Shown: one piece after another, positions 22,585-35,143 of the stretch
Position numbering within the stretch: position 1 is the stretch's first letter
Layout of the letters: every line of letters starts with the position of its first letter
Assembly (NCBI GenBank): GCA_964619965.1
Contig: CAZUGP010000058.1
Location: 5,198-69,197, forward strand
DNA: 64,000 bases
Reading direction: 5' to 3'
Source: an uncultured Acidobacteriota bacterium
Lineage (GTDB): Bacteria; Acidobacteriota; Polarisedimenticolia; Polarisedimenticolales; DASRJG01
Program-made: the position numbers and the translations under genes
Notes under the pieces: model-generated
Databases searched by the model: none
What the model was told of the DNA's origin: nothing
What the model saw: the letters and a program-made list of their open reading frames with translations, nothing else

Positions 22585-24219
22585 GTGGAACGAGGCGGGA
22601 AATCGAGAGCCGTAGCACGCCTTGCTTTGCTCGCGGGCGTTGCGGTGGTCGGCGTCTACCTGGCGCACGTCGTTTCGTATTGGCAGCAGATCAACGACGA
22701 CGCCTTCATCACGTTCCGGTACAGCAAGTTCCTGGCCTTAGGACGCGGTCCGTACTTCAACGTCGGGGAGCACGTCGAGGGGTACACCAACCCGCTGCTG
22801 ATGATCGTCATGAGCGCTTGGCTCGCCGTTTTCGGCGACGCCAACGTGCTCGTCGCGGCCAAAGTGATCGGGGTCGCGGCAGGCGTCGCCAGCCTCATCT
22901 TCACTTGGCTCTTGTGCCGCAGGTGGCTTCGGAGCGTGCCCGCGCTGGCGCCGTTCGCAACACTTCTCGCCTGGCTCGCGCCGGCGCTCGTCGCAACCCA
23001 GGCGGAGTTTGCTCTCAACAGCACGACGGGCCTCGAAACGACGCTTTTTGCCGCGGGGATCATGGCGGGTTTGTGCCTTGGCCTTTCGGCCGAGGAAGCC
23101 AATCGCTGGCGGGGCGCGGGCGCGGTGTTCGCGCTCGCCGTTTGGACTCGACCCGAGGGCGCGGCCGTTTTCTTTCTGGTGATGGGTGCGAGACTCGTCG
23201 GAGGCGCTTTTGGCAGCACGGCAGCGCGCCGCCGCTGGCTGTTGGACGCGGGCATCGGCGCCGCGGCAGTGATCACGTTGTTGCTTCTGCGCTTTTCGCT
23301 CTACGACGGCGAGCTGGTGCCCAACACGTACCACGCGAAACTCGGTGGCATGACGGGCCGATCGACGGCGTTCGGCTATGTGACGGGTCTCGTCCGGTGG
23401 CATTTGGCCTGGGTGGGGTGGTTGCCGATTCCTCTGGCACTCGTCTTGGCACCTCGCGACCTGCGCCGCTGGGTATTGCCGCCACTGTGCGTCCTAGGCT
23501 TCGGTGTGGTCGCGATCTTCCTCACCGGCCCCGATTGGATGCCGGGCTACCGCTTGCTCGTGCCGTACCTGCCGTTGTGGGGCGCCCTCTCGGCGCTCGG
23601 TCTGTGTCTCGTCGCGAAGAGCTTAGGATCTAGGCCGCAGTGGATCGGCGCGACGCTTCTTTTGGCGATGATCGTGGGCCTATTCGCGTGGCAGCATCCG
23701 GTGCGCTCGAGCTTCAGAAACTACCTCGTCACCCGTGCGCGCGGCTATCGCGAGGGGCACGTCGCCCTGGCCGATTGGCTGCACGACCGCGCGCGGGCAG
23801 GGGAGACCGCGGCGCTCATGGACATCGGCATCGTGGGGTTTAGAGACATCGACCTCAACATCCTCGACCTGACGGGGTTGACCGATCGGACGATCGCTAA
23901 CTCCCCCGGAGGGTTTCTCAAGAAGCGTTATCCATTGTCGTACGTCTTGGACCGCAAGCCTGAGTTCGTGGTCGTCGTGTACACGGGACCGGAGACGATC
24001 CGGACGGATCGCCCCATGTCGCTGGTCCCGTGGACCGAGATCGAGGGCCGGCTGGTGAATGATCCCACCTTCAACGCGCTCTACGTCCGTCGGCGCGCCG
24101 CCGATCCGGGCGCGGACCTGCTCCTACAGCTGGCCGCGCACTACGGCGCCGAGCGAGTCTTCCGCCACGCGTATCCTCGAAGGAGCTACTTCCTCTTCGC
24201 CTACGCACTGCACCCGTAA
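22585..24219 (+). CDS. GT-C fold polytopic membrane glycosyltransferase (ArnT/PMT-like; family unresolved), paralog 1
   Basis: About 12 hydrophobic segments. First-loop acidic motif [37 protein letters not shown]. Soluble C-terminal domain. Paralogous to 24224..26053. Confidence 0.75.
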
Positions 24220-24223
24220 CGGT

Positions 24224-26053
24224 TCACTCAAAGGGCGCTTCCGCTCCGTGCATTGCGGCGGCTTTTCGGATCGCGTCCAGATCGTGGGCGCTTTGAAACT
24301 GAAGTCGTGGAAACCTGAGCCGGGCCTGCTCGATCCCCTGAGGCAGCCACGCGACCAGGTAATGCGAGTCGTCCACCATCGCAAAGTGCCGCTCGCGCTC
24401 TTTCCCGTACAAGCTGTCGAGCTGCCGCCACAGCCGCGGATTGTCGGAGCCCCACAACAGGTGGGCGGACTCCTCGACCCAAAGGTCCACGCCACTCTCA
24501 CGCGCGTAGTCCCAGGTTGCGCTCTTCCCGTGGGCCGACATCTCGCGAACGAACGGGGAGTGCGCGACGTGGGCGTCCGTCAATCCGAGCTGATCGAGCA
24601 CGCGCAGGTTGGTGTAGTAGGGGATCGCGCCGACGCAATTCAAGGCGACGTACGTGTCCCGCGGAATCGTCCCGCGGGCGAGCAAATCGTTGAGCCATCG
24701 CGCCTCGGGGATCATCGTTGCCAGGAACAGCTCGTGCTCCTCCTGTCGGATGCCGACGAAATGCCGCGTGGTCTCGCGAACCAGATCGCGGTGCGCTCCG
24801 GCGATTGCGCGCAGCAGCGGGAGCCGGTAGATCGGGCTCCGAGTCGGGTCGAGAAACTCCACGGCTCCTGCGGTCTTACCGAGCCGCAATCCTGGGAAAC
24901 CGGGAACGTACGCGTCCGGGAACTGGACGTGCGCACGGTAGGGCAGCTCGACGATTCCGGCTGTTACGAGTGCTGCGCCTGCGAGCGTCAATGCCGTTGA
25001 CCGCCGCGTCGTCGCCAGTTGCCTGACGCCGTCGTACAGAAGTAAGTAAAGGAAAGGGAAGTAGAGGTCGAGCGGCCGATACTCGAAGTGGTCTCCGCCG
25101 ATCGAGGCGATGTAGATCGCATGGGGGATGACGATCGCCCCGAAAACAACGGGCGTGACGAGACTCGACCGCTTCTTGTGAAACAACAGCGCGGCGACGA
25201 CGAGCGGCACCCAGAGGTAGACGGCGTACTCGAGGCCGAACGAGGCGAGGTACCGGCCGCCCATGGACCACCAAGTCCGGCCATCGACCTTGGCATAGTA
25301 GGTATTGGGGAACCACTCGCCGTAGTAGGCCAGGCGGAAGAGGGTGTGAGCGACGACGACACCCGCGCAGATCGCAAACGAGCGAATCGTCCACGTCAAG
25401 CGGGCGCTTGTCCGCCGCCAGCGATAGAGGCAGACGGCGCCGAAGGCGCACGCGGCGACGAGAACCCCGTCAGGCCGCGTGAGGCATGCGAGCGCGAACA
25501 GCAACGCCCCGAGGGGAGGCACCCGCGCGGCGCCGTGCTGCAGCTCCCCATCCTCGTGGATCAGCCGCAGCGCTCCGGCGACGACGAGCAGCTCGAACAG
25601 CCGCGTCTCCAATCCGCTCGTCGACCAGACCGCAACACTTCGGGTGAGCGCGAGCAAGACCAACGGGATGAGGATCAGATAGGCGTTGCGTCCGTCGGGA
25701 CGATCGCGCCAAACGAACCGCGCGAGCGCGGCCCACATCCCCACGGTGGCGGCGATCGACACGATCGACGCAGCGAACTCAGGAGCGATGCCCACGACCC
25801 GGCCCGCTGCGAGCAACAGCACCCAGAGCAGGTTCGTGTACCCCTCGACCCGCTCGAACCCGGGATTGAACACGAGACCGTGACCCTCGGCCAGGTTCCG
25901 TGCGTAACGAAAGGAGATGAACGCATCATCGGTCAAAAACCGGTACCAGCCGGCGTGGGCGAGAAGCAAGATCAACGAGACGCCGAGTGCGACCAGTAAA
26001 GGCCACGGCGCGTTTCTTCCCGGGAGGTCGGTCGGTTGGGTCTTCACGGCCAC
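24224..26053 (-). CDS. GT-C fold polytopic membrane glycosyltransferase, paralog 2
   Basis: LTDDAFISFRYARNLAEGHGLVFNPGFERVEGYTNLLW matches paralog 1. Shared C-terminal block LD.(L/T)GLTD..(I/V)A(N/H)SP. GTG start. Convergent with paralog 1 with a 4-nt gap. Confidence 0.75.
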   Translation of the reverse strand: MAVKTQPTDLPGRNAPWPLLVALGVSLILLLAHAGWYRFLTDDAFISFRYARNLAEGHGLVFNPGFERVEGYTNLLWVLLLAAGRVVGIAPEFAASIVSIAATVGMWAALARFVWRDRPDGRNAYLILIPLVLLALTRSVAVWSTSGLETRLFELLVVAGALRLIHEDGELQHGAARVPPLGALLFALACLTRPDGVLVAACAFGAVCLYRWRRTSARLTWTIRSFAICAGVVVAHTLFRLAYYGEWFPNTYYAKVDGRTWWSMGGRYLASFGLEYAVYLWVPLVVAALLFHKKRSSLVTPVVFGAIVIPHAIYIASIGGDHFEYRPLDLYFPFLYLLLYDGVRQLATTRRSTALTLAGAALVTAGIVELPYRAHVQFPDAYVPGFPGLRLGKTAGAVEFLDPTRSPIYRLPLLRAIAGAHRDLVRETTRHFVGIRQEEHELFLATMIPEARWLNDLLARGTIPRDTYVALNCVGAIPYYTNLRVLDQLGLTDAHVAHSPFVREMSAHGKSATWDYARESGVDLWVEESAHLLWGSDNPRLWRQLDSLYGKERERHFAMVDDSHYLVAWLPQGIEQARLRFPRLQFQSAHDLDAIRKAAAMHGAEAPFE

Positions 26054-29960: not shown

Positions 29961-30186
29961 CGGGGTCACCGGCCTGGCGTTCCCCCTGTCCGCGAATGAG
30001 AGCAAGGCGGGCACGCAGCTGGCGTTCGACCTCGGCGTCGTCGGCATTCGGGCGCCGCGAGCGGATTCCCTCTCGTGCCACATCGCACGCGAGCTCGTGG
30101 AGGGAAAGCGCTATCCCGAGGCGCTGTTCGCCGGTCATCCGTCGGTACCTGGCGATCTGTTCCTCGAGCGCGGCTTGCGGGTTCAT
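29953..30186 (-). CDS. hypothetical small helical protein (77 aa), upstream partner of the nucleotidyltransferase-like remnant
   Basis: MNPQAALEEQIARYRRMTGEQRLGIALSLHELACDVAREGIRSRRPNADDAEVERQLRARL. Its stop overlaps the TTG of the downstream remnant. Confidence 0.55.
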   Translation of the reverse strand: MNPQAALEEQIARYRRMTGEQRLGIALSLHELACDVAREGIRSRRPNADDAEVERQLRARLALIRGQGERQAGDPVD

Positions 30187-30260
30187 CGAGTCATTCTACT
30201 ACCCGCGATGGAAGGTGGTGCTCCGCTGTATCATCGTCGCTACGGAGATCATCCAATCCC

Positions 30261-32729
30261 GTGAGGCCCGCGATCTTTGTGCTTGGGCTGGTCTTGTTGC
30301 TGCCCGCGAGGGCGGCGACGGTTGTGGTGTCGGTTCGGGAGCGAGGAGCCGGGCCGATAGCCGAACAGCGGGTCGTCATCGAGCCCACCGGCACTCCCGG
30401 CGGGCTTCCGACATGGAATCGCGCTCGGATTCAGTTGCGCGTCACTGGAGCGGACGGGAAGGCCGTCTTCGAGCAGATCCCGGTCGGACGTTACACGCTC
30501 AACCTCGAGGGGATCGCTCAGCCGGGCCTGATCAACCCCGCGGCGAATCCGCTCGCCCCGCCGCCACAGATCACGATCGCCGCGGACGGAGACAAGGTCC
30601 AGGTTGAGATCGAGGTCTGGCGGGGGAGTCTCCTCCGCGCCGAAGTTCTTGTGGACCGCGCCAACATTCCGCGGGGTGCCAAGGTGGTCTTGCGAAGCCT
30701 CGACGGGCAGCCCACGGCAGATCTCCGCCTCGATGCTCAGGGGCGCGTCGAACGGCTTCTTCTCCCGGGACGCTATGAGGCGGAGCTCGCAATCCCGCCG
30801 GGGTATCTGTTGATGGATCTCGTCTGGAACGGAGAGTCCCTTCCCGGCCACGTCGCCCGCTTCGATGTCCGCGAGGACCCACGCCCGCAGAACGTGAGCT
30901 GGTACCTGAGCACGCCATGCCTGATCACCGGCAAGGTGGCGGACGCCTCCGGAGAATGCCCCGTCCAGCTGGTCGCCACCCTGAAGCAGCCCGGCCCGTG
31001 GATCGTCGCGGCGACGCAGCGAGGTGGATCCACCTTTCAGTTGGTGCCCCATCAAGAATGGGTCGCAAACAGCAAATGCATTTACCGCCTCTGGCTGCCC
31101 GACGGCCAATGGATCGTGCAGCCGCAAGGCGAGTACTTGCTGACCGCAGAGCCCGCATCGGCCGACGTCACGATCGCGCCCGGCGAAACGCGAACGCTCG
31201 ACTTCCAGCTCGAGACGAAAGAAGGCGACGGCCTCAAGAAGGGCCAGCCTCTCATTGTCAGCGTCCGTTCGCCTGAGGGCTGGGGAATCGTAGGAGCGGT
31301 CGTCGAAATCTGGCCACCAGACGAAGACACGCTCTCGGCCACCCCAGTCAGAACCGGTAAGACGGAAGGGTACGCGGGATCCGTGTCGTTTCGGGACCTC
31401 GCCGCCGGAAACTACCGAGTGGCTGCGGGGGCCGACGACTTCCTCGAAGGAACCGCCACGGTGGAGGATTACAACCCGAAAGCGAAGGAACCGACAAGCG
31501 TCACGGTGACGCTGCGCGCAGGCGCCAAGCTGCACGCGCGCGCTGTGGATGACAGGGACCGTCCGGTCCAAGGCGTGGAGCTGAGCTACACGCGCCTCTC
31601 GCCACTCCCCAAGTTGGCCCTCGCCAACGAGGGCATCGCGGCGAAAAAGCGACAGGGCACAGGGCTCTCCGACGTCACGGGGCACATCGAGATTCCGGGT
31701 CTCTACACCGGCGATTACCGCGTCCTAGCCCGCATGACGGGGGAGCAAGCCGCAACCCGCTTCGTCGTCCTTCGACAGGGCGGCGCGAAACACACCCGCT
31801 CGATCGAGGTGCGTCTCAACGAGGGCGAGCGCTCCGACGTGGATCTTCTCGTGCTGCCCGCGGCGAGTCTCTCCGGGCGCCTGGCCTGCGCAGACCGCGG
31901 CACGATGCCGCCGAAGGTATCGTTCCGGATCTTTCCGGCAGGCTCGCGCGTTGAAAACCTCTGGACCGAGAAGGAACTCAAGGCGGACGCGGCGAGCGCA
32001 CAAGACGACGTGGTGCTGCGCGGGGATGGAGCGGATCTCTTCCACTTGGGACCCTTGCCGCTGGGCGAGTATCACGTGGCCGCCCGTCCCGACGGCCAGG
32101 TCTACTGGAGCTGGGCGTCGAACGAGCTCGTGCCGGATCGCGCGACGGTCTTTCCGGTCGCCGAAGCCGCGACCCTGGATACGGGGGTCGTCGAGATCGA
32201 GTGTGGGCCGCTCGTGGCCGTGGTGCCGGACATCCTGTCCAAGGAGCCGGTACCCGATCTGCATCTCGGCGCCGTGCGCGCGACATTGCGTCGATCATCC
32301 GACAAGAAGAATCCGCGAAGCGTAAGCGCGGACGTCGAGGTGCACGCCGCCCGCGCGTTCCTCCGCCGACTGCAGGAAGGCAAGTTCATGACAGCGGTAA
32401 CCGTGGAGCACCCGTACCTGATCCCGCCGTCGATCTCCGTGCCGGAGCGGGAGCTCCCGCTCACTCGTGGAAGCTTCGCCGAGATCCACGTGGACTTCGA
32501 CCGGCTCGGAGGGTTGGTGGACGTGCGGGGAGACGGAAAGGTCGCGCGCATGACACCCGAAGAAGGGAGCCCGGTGGTCCGCGCCGTAGCAAGCCAAAAG
32601 GCCACCTTCCCCGGGACGCCTCCCGGCACCTACCGCGTCGAACTGTGCGGCGATCCCGATTGCGCTTCCGTGACCGCCGCATGGAAGGGCGTTGTCGTGC
32701 GGGCGGGGAGGACGACGTTCTTGCCGTGA
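30261..32729 (+). CDS. large secreted protein built from repeated carboxypeptidase-regulatory-like / Ig-like domains
   Basis: GTG start gives the signal peptide VRPAIFVLGLVLLLPARA. At least seven repeats follow the pattern ...G.A/V.F..(I/L)P.G.Y.(L/V)... (for example GKAVFEQIPVGRYTLNL, FRDLAAGNYRVAAG, GLYTGDYRVLAR, LPLGEYHVAAR, PPGTYRVELC). Confidence 0.75.
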   Translation: MRPAIFVLGLVLLLPARAATVVVSVRERGAGPIAEQRVVIEPTGTPGGLPTWNRARIQLRVTGADGKAVFEQIPVGRYTLNLEGIAQPGLINPAANPLAPPPQITIAADGDKVQVEIEVWRGSLLRAEVLVDRANIPRGAKVVLRSLDGQPTADLRLDAQGRVERLLLPGRYEAELAIPPGYLLMDLVWNGESLPGHVARFDVREDPRPQNVSWYLSTPCLITGKVADASGECPVQLVATLKQPGPWIVAATQRGGSTFQLVPHQEWVANSKCIYRLWLPDGQWIVQPQGEYLLTAEPASADVTIAPGETRTLDFQLETKEGDGLKKGQPLIVSVRSPEGWGIVGAVVEIWPPDEDTLSATPVRTGKTEGYAGSVSFRDLAAGNYRVAAGADDFLEGTATVEDYNPKAKEPTSVTVTLRAGAKLHARAVDDRDRPVQGVELSYTRLSPLPKLALANEGIAAKKRQGTGLSDVTGHIEIPGLYTGDYRVLARMTGEQAATRFVVLRQGGAKHTRSIEVRLNEGERSDVDLLVLPAASLSGRLACADRGTMPPKVSFRIFPAGSRVENLWTEKELKADAASAQDDVVLRGDGADLFHLGPLPLGEYHVAARPDGQVYWSWASNELVPDRATVFPVAEAATLDTGVVEIECGPLVAVVPDILSKEPVPDLHLGAVRATLRRSSDKKNPRSVSADVEVHAARAFLRRLQEGKFMTAVTVEHPYLIPPSISVPERELPLTRGSFAEIHVDFDRLGGLVDVRGDGKVARMTPEEGSPVVRAVASQKATFPGTPPGTYRVELCGDPDCASVTAAWKGVVVRAGRTTFLP

Positions 32730-32732
32730 GAA

Positions 32733-32778
32733 TTGGAGCCGGCACCCAGACTTGAACTGGGGACCTGCTGATTACGAA
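32733..32778. repeat. 46-nt perfect copy of the 3' part of tRNA-Thr(CGU) (att-like, distal copy)
   Basis: ttggagccggcacccagacttgaactggggacctgctgattacgaa is identical to 35067..35112. Cross-checked through the shared RNQQVPSSSLGAGS translation of two minus-strand track ORFs. No acceptor 5' strand or D-arm follows, so it is not a tRNA gene. Confidence 0.9.
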
Positions 32779-32980
32779 GTGGCCTGTTACCGGGTGATAA
32801 CGCTCGGAACGGCGACATGTCTCAAAGGCGCTGGGCGTAATTTGGGCACAACGAAACGGCGAGCGAAGCCCAAAGCACGCGGGCTCGTCTACCCGCCCGG
32901 ACGATGTCACCGCCTTGACTCCGGAGTTGTCTGAGGGAACGTTTCGAGAGGCCGATCCGCTTTCGCCTGGGGAGAATTCC

Positions 32981-34309
32981 ATGCCTCGATCAGCCGTGCG
33001 CGTCCTCCGGTTCTCGCTTGTGGCGTTCGGGATCATCGCCTTGATTCCCCCCTCGTTTTCGGGGCCGAAGGTGCCGGTGCCGAGGATCGTCCAGCCTCCC
33101 GACCGGTTCTTCCAGGAGGGCAGCAACCTGGCGGTAGACGTGGGGTACGACGGAGCGGACAACGGGTCGAAGCAACGTCGCTCGGACATGTCGATTCAGC
33201 TGATCGTTGACGGAGCCCTGATCGAGCAGCGAACCTTGCCATCGGACAGCGAGGTCAGCACCTTCACGGTTCCCGTCAACGCCGAAGACCCGATCAGCTT
33301 GATCCAGGTCTGTATCCAGCAAGGGAGCTCAGGATCCGACAATCGGGTGTGTCGACAAGTGCGAGCAGCAGGGATCGGGGATTTCGACCGCGTCCGTCGC
33401 TCGCTGGAAGAGATGAACGAGATTTCCGACGCCGTGGTGCGTTACTCCGTCTTGCGACTCGGGTATCGCGGCGTTCCACAATCGCTCGAACAGCTTGTTC
33501 CGGATTTTCTCGACCGCGTGCCATCGGCCAGTCCGTTCTCCACGCCCTACCAGTACACGGCCACCGATGAGCACTTCACGCTTCGCCTCGTGATTCCCGG
33601 TCGCGTCGAGATCCGCAACGAAGATGGCACGTTCACGAATCTGCCTAGGGGAGCGATCACGGTTCGTGAAGCGGCCCGACTTACACGGCAGCAACTCGTG
33701 GAGCTTGCCCAGTCGGTGGAGTCGTATCGCGTCGACTACAACCGCTTCCCGGAACGGATCGAGGACTTGGCCCCCATCTACCGGCGATTCATACCCGTGG
33801 TGGATCCCTACGGGCATCCCTATGTGTTTTCACTCGCACCCGATGCGTACGTACTGACTGGTCTGGGGAGGGATGGGCTGCCGGGGGGCGAGGGGTTCGA
33901 TGCGGACAGCAAAGTGACCAACGGCATGCAGCTCGTGGCGACGACGCCCTACCGGGGCCGCTACGAGTATCTTCGACGCACATTCATGGACATGTCTCAG
34001 GTCTCGGCGGCGTTGTCGTATTTCCAGGAACAGACCGGAACGTGGCCGAACTCGCTTTCTGAGCTTGTGGGCGGCCCATGGTTCTCGTGGCCGCGTGTGT
34101 TCTCAGACGACTGCGGGAACCCGTACGACTACCACGTGTTCGACACTGGTTTCGGTAATCGGGAGTACCGACTTCGGGCGTTTGGATGCAATGGCGTTCC
34201 GTACACCGATCCGTTCGAGAGCCTCTTGTACTTCTCGGCGGACACTGCCGGATACGTCTCGGCGCCGGGGTGGAGATTCGCCTATCGCTGGCCGGGGCTG
34301 TTTGACTGA
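32981..34309 (+). CDS. signal-anchored protein with three tandem GspG-like (type II secretion pseudopilin globular) modules
   Basis: Start MPRSAVRVLRFSLVAFGIIALIPPSFS with a GGGGAGAA RBS. Modules end in SPFSTPYQYTATDEHFTLRLV, VDPYGHPYVFSLAPDAYVLTGLGRDGLPGGEGFDAD and DDCGNPYDYHVFDTGFGNREYRLRAFGCNG. Compare the T2SS-G pattern DPWG.PY.Y....Y.L.S.G.DG..GG.G.D.D. There is no prepilin G/FTLIE leader. Confidence 0.7.
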   Translation: MPRSAVRVLRFSLVAFGIIALIPPSFSGPKVPVPRIVQPPDRFFQEGSNLAVDVGYDGADNGSKQRRSDMSIQLIVDGALIEQRTLPSDSEVSTFTVPVNAEDPISLIQVCIQQGSSGSDNRVCRQVRAAGIGDFDRVRRSLEEMNEISDAVVRYSVLRLGYRGVPQSLEQLVPDFLDRVPSASPFSTPYQYTATDEHFTLRLVIPGRVEIRNEDGTFTNLPRGAITVREAARLTRQQLVELAQSVESYRVDYNRFPERIEDLAPIYRRFIPVVDPYGHPYVFSLAPDAYVLTGLGRDGLPGGEGFDADSKVTNGMQLVATTPYRGRYEYLRRTFMDMSQVSAALSYFQEQTGTWPNSLSELVGGPWFSWPRVFSDDCGNPYDYHVFDTGFGNREYRLRAFGCNGVPYTDPFESLLYFSADTAGYVSAPGWRFAYRWPGLFD

Positions 34310-34394
34310 CGAAGACCCGGGGCGTTTCCTCTCCTCCACGACCCGCGGTGATGCCATAATCGCGCGAGACTTCACCGAGAAAGGGGAGGCCAGG

Positions 34395-34685
34395 ATGCTC
34401 CGTGACGATGTCCTTGCGAAAATCGCGGCGCAGCGGGAGTCGCTGGACCGATTTCACGTCAAGACTCTGGCCGTATTCGGGTCGGTTGCGCGAGGCGAAG
34501 CTCGAGCCGAAAGCGACGTGGACCTGCTCGTCGAGTTCAGCGTTCAGGTCGGCCTTTTCGAGTTCGTGCGCCTGAAGCGGTTTCTCGAAGAGATTCTCGG
34601 CGCCCGAGTCGATCTCGTTACGCCCGGAGCGCTCAAGCCGCAGCTCCGCCAAGCCGTGTTGCGGGAGGCGGTCCGTGCCGCCTAG
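34395..34685 (+). CDS. nucleotidyltransferase-domain antitoxin (MNT)
   Basis: GSVARGEARAESDVDLLVEF minimal nucleotidyltransferase motif. AAAGGGGAGG RBS. 11-nt overlap with the HEPN gene. Confidence 0.88.
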   Translation: MLRDDVLAKIAAQRESLDRFHVKTLAVFGSVARGEARAESDVDLLVEFSVQVGLFEFVRLKRFLEEILGARVDLVTPGALKPQLRQAVLREAVRAA

Positions 34686-35016
34686 AGACTGGCGCATTCG
34701 CATCGAGGACATCATCGAGGCTGCGACTGCCATCGCAGGCTATGTCCAGGGACTCTCTTACGAGGAGTTCGCGAACGATCGCAAGACGGTCGATGCAGTA
34801 GTCCGCAATCTCGAAGTGATTGGCGAGGCCGCGCGGCACGTTCCCGATACCGAGAAAGAGCGATTTCCGGAACTGCCGTGGGCGGACATGGCGGACATGC
34901 GGAACGTGCTCATCCACGAGTACTTCGGCGTCGATCTCACGATCCTTTGGAAGACCGCGAGCGTCGACCTGCCGGCGATTCTCCCAGCTCTGACACGAGT
35001 CATCGAGGGCTCGTAG
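34675..35016 (+). CDS. HEPN-domain toxin (DUF86/HepT-like)
   Basis: GTG start. RNVLIHEY (Rx4H HEPN motif). Classic MNT-HEPN gene order. Confidence 0.88.
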   Translation: MPPRDWRIRIEDIIEAATAIAGYVQGLSYEEFANDRKTVDAVVRNLEVIGEAARHVPDTEKERFPELPWADMADMRNVLIHEYFGVDLTILWKTASVDLPAILPALTRVIEGS

Positions 35017-35067
35017 TCGGACCGAGCCGGGCTCTCCATTTGTCCCCGGGATCCACGTTCCTTGATT

Positions 35068-35143
35068 TGGAGCCGGCACCCAGACTTGAACTGGGGACCT
35101 GCTGATTACGAATCAGCCGCTCTACCAACTGAGCTATGCCGGC
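35068..35143 (-). tRNA. tRNA-Thr (anticodon CGT), CCA encoded
   Basis: Hand-folded cloverleaf: acceptor GCCGGCA/TGCCGGC, D-stem GCTC/GAGC, anticodon stem GCTGA/TCAGC with loop TTCGTAA, variable AGGTC, T-stem CCCAG/CTGGG with loop TTCAAGT, discriminator T, CCA. 76 nt. Confidence 0.92.

Follow-up and report, generated by a model that had tools for sequence, protein, structure and literature searches.

A cassette-borne gene of an uncultured Acidobacteriota bacterium encodes a putatively exported protein with three tandem GspG-like heads

Pilin and pseudopilin heads are usually regarded solely as the outer part of filament subunits. Here we describe a gene in which the head appears to have been freed from its polymerisation stem, triplicated, fused to an immunoglobulin-like (Ig-like) domain and routed to Sec export, and in which this arrangement is maintained by purifying selection. 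The gene lies at 32981-34309, on the forward strand of a 64-kb stretch of DNA from an uncultured Acidobacteriota bacterium (contig CAZUGP010000058.1 of assembly GCA_964619965.1; the whole stretch of 64,000 nucleotides is hereafter the window, and positions are those of the window). It encodes a 442-aa protein with three modules that resemble the globular domain of GspG, the major type II secretion system (T2SS) pseudopilin. The protein is not a canonical pseudopilin subunit and, despite its database label, is not GspG. Our preferred interpretation, which we hold to be somewhat better than even, is a Sec-exported, non-polymerising protein that joins the Ig-like domain to three tandem stemless heads and has a soluble binding or scaffold role independent of filaments.

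The open reading frame (ORF) starts with ATG at 32981 and ends with the stop codon at 34307-34309. The gene and the parts of its product are as follows, with the evidence in brackets (AF2, AlphaFold2; HMM, hidden Markov model; dN/dS, ratio of nonsynonymous to synonymous substitution rates).

32981-34309, forward strand: coding sequence of the 442-aa, putatively exported protein with three stemless pseudopilin heads (ORF, homologues, dN/dS)
32981-33061, forward strand: predicted signal peptide of the Sec/signal peptidase I type, residues 1-27, MPRSAVRVLRFSLVAFGIIALIPPSFS (family alignment, motif checks, dN/dS)
33062-33376, forward strand: predicted beta-sandwich (Ig-like) domain, residues 28-132, with the invariant pair Cys111/Cys124 (AF2, Foldseek, alignment)
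33377-33658, forward strand: module 1, residues 133-226, very probably a degenerate GspG-like head (HHalign, HMM)
33659-33934, forward strand: module 2, residues 227-318, canonical T2SSG head (Pfam, TIGR01710 and PDB profile matches)
33935-34306, forward strand: module 3, residues 319-442, GspG-like head that has lost the Ca2+-binding Asp residues (HHalign, HMM, PDB profile match)

Three tandem GspG-like modules

Module 2 matches Pfam T2SSG (PF08334) with 35.6 bits over residues 233-309 (gathering threshold 21) and aligns gap-free to XcpT (2KEP) through SLGRDGLPGGEGFDAD. When the family profile is compared with the PDB, the best matches are GspG/EpsG structures (2KEP, E 2e-5, then 3GN9, 3FU1 and 4LW9). 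Modules 1 and 3 fall under Pfam's T2SSG threshold, and Pfam and NCBIfam report module 2 only.

An 18-sequence family alignment was cut into the N-terminal domain and the three modules, and the resulting profiles were compared with HHalign. The module sub-profiles match each other (88% for modules 1 and 2, 88% for modules 1 and 3, 94% for modules 2 and 3), and the N-terminal domain has no similarity to any of them (0.1-0.3%). A reference profile was built from the globular parts of 10 representative proteins with a canonical prepilin leader. Against these leader-bearing pseudopilin heads, module 1 reaches 96.1% (score 50.5, 59 columns aligned), module 2 99.7% (score 138.4) and module 3 98.0% (score 75.0, 77 columns), and the N-terminal domain, used as a negative control, 0.1%. 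Forty column-shuffled versions of module 1 score 11.5 +/- 3.2 (maximum 19.3), which places the real score at z ~12; for module 3 the forty shuffled versions score 12.6 +/- 3.3 (maximum 19.5), and z is ~19. Since the profile matches exceed both the N-domain and the column-shuffle controls, the three-fold repeat is far beyond chance.

An HMM built from these same 10 pseudopilins likewise recognises three domains in the protein, at residues 139-201 (17.2 bits), 233-314 (68.9 bits) and 333-407 (23.8 bits). The same HMM reports three domains in nearly all full-length homologues; in P0017 and P0022 module 1 or module 3 is sub-threshold. Searched alone against the PDB, the module-3 profile has GspG 2KEP as its top match (E 8e-4). 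For the module-1 profile, GspG/EpsG structures make up four of the five best matches, at E values of 0.18-1.5; only the helix and the first strands of this module align, and the strand SPFSTPYQY is kept. By these profile comparisons modules 2 and 3 are pseudopilin heads, and module 1 very probably is one too, in degenerate form.

The first-pass annotation of this DNA, made from the letters and the ORF translations, had proposed three tandem GspG-like modules and named profile searches among the checks. Its coordinates and reading frame are right, and the helix and strand motifs that it quoted are all found in the translation as given. Its likening of the middle module to the GspG C-terminal pattern is borne out by the gap-free alignment to XcpT and the PF08334 match. 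The wider proposal of three modules agrees with Pfam (for module 2, above the cutoff), with the HHalign and HMM matches of modules 1 and 3 to pseudopilin profiles and with the PDB profile searches; module 1 proves to be degenerate.

AF2 was run on the family alignment (mean predicted local distance difference test score, pLDDT, 67; predicted template modelling score, pTM, 0.37). The Ig-like domain is modelled with seven strands (residues 34-129), with pLDDT of ~65-86 over most of it and lower values in two loops. Foldseek finds only weak Ig-, FN3- and CBM-like matches for this domain in the PDB (E ~6e-3 to 6e-2), in line with the extra beta-rich N-terminal domain that the first-pass annotation had described. 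After the beta-sandwich, the model has a helix at 132-160 followed by strands within 191-214, a helix at 228-253 followed by strands within 282-314, and a helix at 327-352 followed by strands within 383-421. Each repeat thus has one long helix and three strands, as expected for stemless pilin heads. A Foldseek search of the PDB with the full model returned no pilin within the top 50, a result that is uninformative because the pTM is 0.37 and the match list is dominated by one domain. The module-1 model on its own is poor (pLDDT 59) and gave nothing with E < 3, and a search of viral structures (BFVD) gave nothing meaningful. The predicted head fold is supported by sequence profiles and predicted secondary structure, not by three-dimensional comparison.

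A Sec-type N terminus in place of a prepilin leader

Residues 1-27 contain three Arg, a hydrophobic core (residues 11-24) and, in most homologues, small residues at -3 and -1. No other region of the protein is as poorly conserved as the N-terminal hydrophobic segment (majority-residue fraction 0.48), and dN/dS over the signal peptide is ~0.4-1.2 or higher, versus 0.09-0.25 in the modules. Such variability is the opposite of how a pilin stem behaves, and the Sec-type layout with near-neutral evolution fits the ordinary signal or anchor sequence proposed in the first-pass annotation. Lipoprotein and Tat export were considered and set aside on inspection, as both a lipobox Cys and an RR motif are missing. 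We infer that the protein is exported via Sec and that its signal peptide is cleaved.

The prepilin pattern [GAS][FMYLIVW][TSAN][LIVMF][LIVMFT]E is absent from the first 70 aa of all 21 close homologues and from an extended, 464-aa version of the ORF; a stricter prepilin motif is absent in all six frames of the 64-kb window. Furthermore, a beta-sandwich of ~100 aa separates the sole hydrophobic segment from the first head, and no stem is continuous with a head helix. Without a class III leader, Gly-1/Glu+5 or an alpha1-N stem, the protein would not undergo prepilin peptidase processing, extraction from the inner membrane or stacking into a pseudopilus. The absence of a prepilin leader had been noted at first pass and extends to the close homologues and to every frame of the window.

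The 464-aa frame comes from a mechanical ORF list, where it starts with TTG at 32915. We rejected this codon as the true start: it sits in a conserved TTGACT box, homologues start at the codon equivalent to the ATG, and the extension has no leader motif. Thus an upstream start that exposes a prepilin leader, which the first-pass annotation had named as evidence against its proposal, does not appear. Two features precede the gene:

32971-32974, forward strand: Shine-Dalgarno sequence GGAG, 6 nt 5' of the ATG, invariant in the upstream alignment
32915-32943, forward strand: promoter-like element, TTGACT, 17 nt, AACGTT (upstream alignment of homologues)

An alignment of seven homologues from unrelated neighbourhoods shows that CTTGACTC and ACGTTC are kept upstream of the gene. 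A strict scan for sigma-70 promoters and terminators called nothing near the gene, so a promoter function of the TTGACT element is something that we infer; its second hexamer (ACGTTC) is atypical. That TTGACT-N17-AACGTT is common to unrelated neighbourhoods suggests that the gene travels with its own promoter.

Ca2+ loops, cysteine pairs and the C-terminal tail

In GspG-type heads, Ca2+ is held by two Asp side chains, a Ser/Thr and backbone carbonyls of the C-terminal loop, and type IVa pilins have disulfides in place of Ca2+ (PMC13081927). The Ca2+ motif of E. coli GspG is PGPDGVPNTEDD (PMC3396595). The three modules differ at this point. Module 2 has the Ca2+-loop motif LGRDGLPGGEGFDAD, of the long XcpT/EpsG type, with invariant D298, D307 and D309. 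In module 1 the loop has shrunk to PG.GEI..ED. The module-3 loop, FGCNGVPYTDPFE (FGCNGVPYTDP), matches GPDGVPNTEDD position by position with both key Asp replaced, which identifies it, at the level of sequence, as a descendant of the GxDGVPNTxDD Ca2+ motif. Module 3 also has two invariant cysteines, Cys378 in the DDCGNPY turn and Cys403 in the loop, which flank the former Ca2+ region. In P0029, P0031 and P0033 the Cys pair sits in module 1 instead. In module 3, P0029 and P0031 also retain a GKDG..(G/N)T loop, and P0033 is truncated upstream of that point.

Based on these residues, module 2 would be stabilised by its Ca2+ loop and module 3 by a C378-C403 disulfide that replaces the lost Ca2+ ligands; module 1 would be left with a vestigial loop only. 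The Cys pairs (C111/C124 in the Ig-like domain and C378/C403) fit a protein that is folded in an oxidising extracytoplasmic compartment.

The C-terminal tail (residues 419-442; 34235-34306) ends in PGWRFAYRWPGLFD and is conserved to the last residue. Conservation of the last 18 residues is 0.76, equal to that of the domain cores, with an alternating aromatic pattern and an AF2 pLDDT of ~32. A docking strand and a sorting signal are both conceivable roles for it.

A rare family under purifying selection

A word-indexed search found 21 homologue clusters with 49-99% identity. Full-length homologues have 412-442 aa, and there are four shorter fragments. The named homologues come from metagenome-assembled genomes (MAGs) of Acidobacteriia/Acidobacteriota and are labelled 'type II secretion system protein GspG' or 'hypothetical' (NCBI, JGI). 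An exhaustive search of 1.84 billion representatives returned 8 proteins at E < 1e-30 and 24 at E < 1e-10, and a scan of 185,579 species-representative genomes added only one further locus, in an Acidobacteriota MAG. The family is rare, with ~20 clusters from Acidobacteriota MAGs.

Compared with six homologues, overall dN/dS is 0.20-0.27, with values of 0.09-0.25 for each module and 0.29-0.67 for the Ig-like domain. This is a real, constrained gene under purifying selection. A pseudogene or decayed pilin was considered and is ruled out by the constant length and a dN/dS of 0.1-0.25.

A wider family of ~345-aa proteins has the signal peptide and the three modules without the Ig-like domain, and includes Candidatus Polarisedimenticolia. 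Its C-termini differ from that of the 442-aa protein (…DVLD, …DLID, …GGLLVQLP). There are no gsp/pul/xcp genes in nine distinct neighbourhoods of close homologues, and no T2SS or type IV pilus gene in 13 distinct neighbourhoods of the family and its wider relatives. At 64-76% DNA identity, the more distant homologues have only the gene and up to ~100 bp upstream in common; the neighbourhood differs for each, and tRNAs, restriction-modification-like genes or toxin-antitoxin genes are often close by.

Arrays of heads also occur in unrelated families, with two, three or four tandem heads behind a Sec signal peptide. Four-head proteins form eight representative clusters (P0030, P0036, P0037, P0040-P0042, P0045 and P0051). 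Two of them, P0030 and P0036, were scanned against Pfam, and all four heads were over threshold in both. The named four-head members are from Planctomycetota MAGs and carry the NCBI label 'GspG'. In the one neighbourhood of a four-head gene that was examined (L021:10001-11359), the gene is solitary and adjoins that of a cadherin-like giant adhesin of >3,000 aa. The three-head example P0038 is also encoded by a solitary gene. A prepilin motif occurs within the first 60 residues of 11 of the 149 representative proteins listed, which are a query-biased subset.

We found no description of this architecture in the literature on T2SSG/PF08334, on pseudopilin-like or pilin-like domains, or on leaderless or tandem pseudopilins. 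The layout is not unique, as leaderless arrays of two to four heads exist in other lineages. The first-pass annotation had asked whether homologues are already named, and whether they always lie on islets beside MNT/HEPN genes. The name 'GspG' exists, as a misnomer from automatic annotation; islet and MNT/HEPN genes recur in one related MAG (see below), and distant homologues lie in different neighbourhoods.

Five other proteins encountered here (P0061, P0087, P0089, P0095 and P0146) are T2SSG-like with a single head. Their N-terminal membrane anchor ends in a recurrent A-Y-(L/V/F)-C-(A/S)-W, with no prepilin cleavage motif, and they may form a distinct class of non-canonical anchored pilin-like proteins.

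The gene is cargo of a small cassette at tRNA-Thr

The gene lies in a 2.3-kb cassette of three genes, bounded by direct repeats of the 3' part of a tRNA-Thr gene:

32730-32778, reverse strand: left 49-nt direct repeat, 3' part of tRNA-Thr and left cassette boundary (48 of 49 nt identical to 35064-35112)
34395-34685, forward strand: MNT-type nucleotidyltransferase antitoxin, 96 aa (Pfam NTP_transf_2/Polbeta, E 9.9e-15; PADLOC PDC-S09); also in L011
34675-35016, forward strand: HEPN/HepT-like toxin, 113 aa, with an 11-nt overlap with the MNT gene (Pfam HepT-like, E 3.7e-27)
35064-35112, reverse strand: right 49-nt repeat, inside the intact tRNA gene (repeat search)
35068-35143, reverse strand: intact tRNA-Thr (CGT), the integration target (ARAGORN)

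GC content is ~0.61 (0.60-0.63) in the cassette versus 0.66-0.72 in its flanks. Adjacent, overlapping and carrying both domains, the MNT and HEPN genes are, as judged from their sequences, a type VII toxin-antitoxin pair; besides this pair, the gene of the 442-aa protein is the only one in the cassette. The repeats, the tRNA and the Pfam gene calls all agree with the first-pass description of the gene as the sole cargo of a tRNA-Thr islet other than the toxin-antitoxin genes. In PADLOC, the antitoxin also has a match to PDC-S09, a candidate defence family (E 2.7e-28), and its HEPN partner has none. There is no integrase gene within the cassette, and a metagenome scan with the 3' end of the upstream gene gave no match for an empty integration site.

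A second copy was found in a related MAG (GCA_031404715.1, contig JANNIC010000648.1; locus L011), where a 2,380-bp unit is 98.4% identical and the flanks differ. The tRNA-Thr repeats, together with this 2,380-bp unit in different flanks, show that a small integrative cassette at tRNA-Thr carries the gene as its cargo. The toxin-antitoxin pair probably stabilises the cassette. In L011, a 99-aa integrase fragment lies to the left of the cassette, and a Phd/ParE mini-cassette lies to its right, with a third repeat copy beyond.

Across L011:2542-6466 the array runs from the integrase fragment through a repeat, the GspG-like gene with MNT and HEPN, a second repeat, Phd/ParE and a third repeat, and onwards. 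The cassettes of L011 and that of window 32730-35143 are bounded by the same 46-49-nt repeat of the tRNA-Thr 3' end. L011 has no intact tRNA; its first two cassettes share ~85 nt past the repeat, resembling a decayed tRNA 5' half. The HEPN gene of L011 is called at 72 aa only.

Upstream of the cassette, an 884-aa gene (30075-32729) encodes a secreted-looking protein with CarboxypepD_reg/prealbumin-like repeats. Its stop codon (32727-32729) abuts the left repeat, which places the insertion within a few bases of the end of a convergent gene. The 64-kb window is otherwise ordinary chromosome, with ABC transporter genes, peptidases, DXP synthase, mreBC-PBP2-rodA and similar genes, and it contains no T2SS or type IV pilus genes. 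Two large ORFs of 544 aa (22585-24216, forward strand) and 609 aa (24227-26053, reverse strand) have a coding-like GC content at third codon positions and no Pfam family at E <= 1e-3 or 1e-4.

What the protein might do

In the interpretation that we favour, the three heads would have arisen by triplication of a GspG-type globular domain, giving a beads-on-a-string chain. After export via Sec, the chain would fold into the Ig-like domain and heads held by Ca2+ (module 2) and by disulfides. It may then act as a soluble periplasmic, surface or extracellular binding or scaffold protein, outside any filament. We read the role as filament-independent because the gene is solitary, seems to come with a promoter of its own and has no T2SS or type IV pilus genes next to it at any locus.

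Several points weigh against this interpretation. Its weakest part is the filament-independent role, for which the argument is only that machinery genes are absent nearby; type IV filament genes could lie elsewhere in the genome. No result here points to a binding partner, and a binding role is a tentative suggestion. The pTM of 0.37 for the full model leaves the arrangement of the domains undefined, export and signal-peptide cleavage are read from the sequence alone, and the strongly conserved C-terminal tail, modelled with low confidence, is left without an explanation.

Two other readings concern what the protein is. Only module 2 might be pseudopilin-like, with modules 1 and 3 being unrelated helix-plus-sheet domains that have a few Pro/Tyr motifs in common by chance; Pfam and NCBIfam detect module 2 alone, structure searches (from poor models) return no pilin match, and the module-1 matches in the PDB are not individually significant. 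We give this very little credence, given profile matches of 96% and 98% (z ~12 and ~19 over column shuffles) that recur in nearly all full-length homologues, modules that resemble each other as the N-domain control does not, and a residue-by-residue alignment of the module-3 loop to the Ca2+ motif of GspG. It is just as hard to believe that the protein is a true, non-canonical T2SS major pseudopilin GspG, or a pilin, with the hydrophobic segment as its membrane stem. The NCBI and JGI labels of its homologues ('type II secretion system protein GspG') and the Pfam T2SSG match would agree with this, but the TIGR01710 match reaches 30 bits, with the cutoff at 88.85, and covers residues 271-309 only. 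The protein also lacks a G/FTLIE-type motif and Glu+5, its hydrophobic segment varies, and a 100-aa beta-sandwich stands between it and the first head. With three heads the protein has three times the normal length, and its gene is never within a gsp or pil operon.

Other readings concern what the protein acts on. As a mimic or decoy, roles that the first-pass annotation had put forward, a soluble array of three heads would display pseudopilin or pilin-head surfaces in the periplasm or outside the cell and compete with real filaments for their partners, whether these are assembly components of a T2SS or type IV pilus, the secretin, substrates or the receptor-binding proteins of pilus-specific phages. 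It would then be an inhibitor, or a factor for exclusion or defence, carried by a mobile cassette. The heads are truly homologous to those of GspG, the gene is carried on a low-GC cassette stabilised by a toxin-antitoxin pair at a tRNA, and elsewhere it lies near defence-type or mobile genes (Vsr/Dcm, Uma2, PIN, AbiE, ParE); three linked heads might also add avidity for a helical filament surface. We nevertheless consider this unlikely. The 442-aa protein has no PADLOC or PHROGs match, which leaves a phage or known-defence origin unsupported. Modules 1 and 3 are far removed from canonical heads, two of the three heads have lost the surface Ca2+ loop, no type IV filament genes are close by at any locus, and purifying selection is uniform, with no sign of arms-race diversification. 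A role as a filament tip accessory of the PilC/PilY1 kind, in which the C-terminal strand (…WRFAYRWPGLFD) would be added to the beta-sheet of a minor pilin, with the Ig-like domain and heads then placed at the tip as an adhesin, would account for the conserved tail (0.76) with its beta-strand-like aromatic alternation and its predicted disorder in the monomer (pLDDT ~32). C-terminal beta-strand addition also has a precedent in Sec-exported tip proteins (PMC13533445). Even so, this role seems very unlikely: genes of the PilC/PilY1 type lie in minor-pilin operons while the gene studied here is always solitary, there is no sequence similarity to PilY1, and the wider family ends differently (…DVLD, …DLID, …GGLLVQLP). 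A broader proposal would make stemless head arrays an unrecognised Sec-exported class that targets type IV filament systems. The 442-aa protein would then be the cargo of a mobile, toxin-antitoxin-stabilised cassette and a soluble mimic or decoy that blocks a T2SS or type IV pilus or neutralises pilus-binding phages or competitors, perhaps docking by its C-terminal strand. We regard this proposal as quite unlikely.

Should the protein act on filament machines, or on the phages of these, a mobile element would carry a new type of modulator. Should it not, the pilin head fold would have a new use that is independent of filaments.

Comparison with known systems

Like other tRNA islets with toxin-antitoxin genes, the cassette has direct repeats of the tRNA 3' end, a lower GC content and a toxin-antitoxin pair, and an integrase fragment lies beside its L011 copy. 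It differs in having no integrase of its own and in being very small (2.3 kb, three genes), and the L011 copy differs in that it stands in a tandem array with other mini-cassettes of similar boundaries.

The PilC/PilY1 tip adhesins are Sec-exported non-pilins that work with type IV filaments and have a conserved extreme C-terminal peptide (PMC13533445). The 442-aa protein has no sequence or domain similarity to them, PilY1 genes are in minor-pilin operons, and a link through the tail is hypothetical.

Type IVa pilins have a disulfide-closed 'D-region' (PMC13081927), and module 3 likewise appears to use a Cys pair around its C-terminal loop, as suggested by the invariant cysteines. Unlike these pilins, the 442-aa protein resembles GspG in sequence and lacks a leader and a stem. 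One polypeptide may unite both ways to stabilise a pilin head, the Ca2+ loop and the disulfide.

With GspG/PulG/XcpT/EpsG (PF08334; TIGR01710; 2KEP, 3FU1, 3GN9, 3G20) the protein has the head domain in common, including the amphipathic alpha1-C helix Y..D...(Y/F)P, the strand DP(W/Y)G.PY.Y and, in module 2, a full Ca2+ loop, LG.DG..GG.G.DAD. The class III leader, Glu+5 and the hydrophobic alpha1-N stem of GspG are missing. In their place there is a predicted Sec signal peptide, an Ig-like domain and three heads per chain, two of which lack the Ca2+ ligands; the gene is not in a gsp operon, and its product stays below the TIGR01710 cutoff.

The uncharacterised four-head proteins of Planctomycetota (MCC6572250.1, MEZ5993891.1) are likewise leaderless, with a signal peptide and a solitary gene away from type IV filament machinery. 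They differ in having four canonical heads with Ca2+ loops, all above the Pfam threshold, and no Ig-like domain; they belong to another phylum, and only the head domain is shared with the family described here (30-33% identity over module 2). 'GspG' labels on such head arrays inflate T2SS predictions in MAGs of Acidobacteriota and Planctomycetota. Within a well-known domain family the 442-aa protein shows a new architecture, and it is a member of a broader, unrecognised and mis-annotated class of stemless head repeats.

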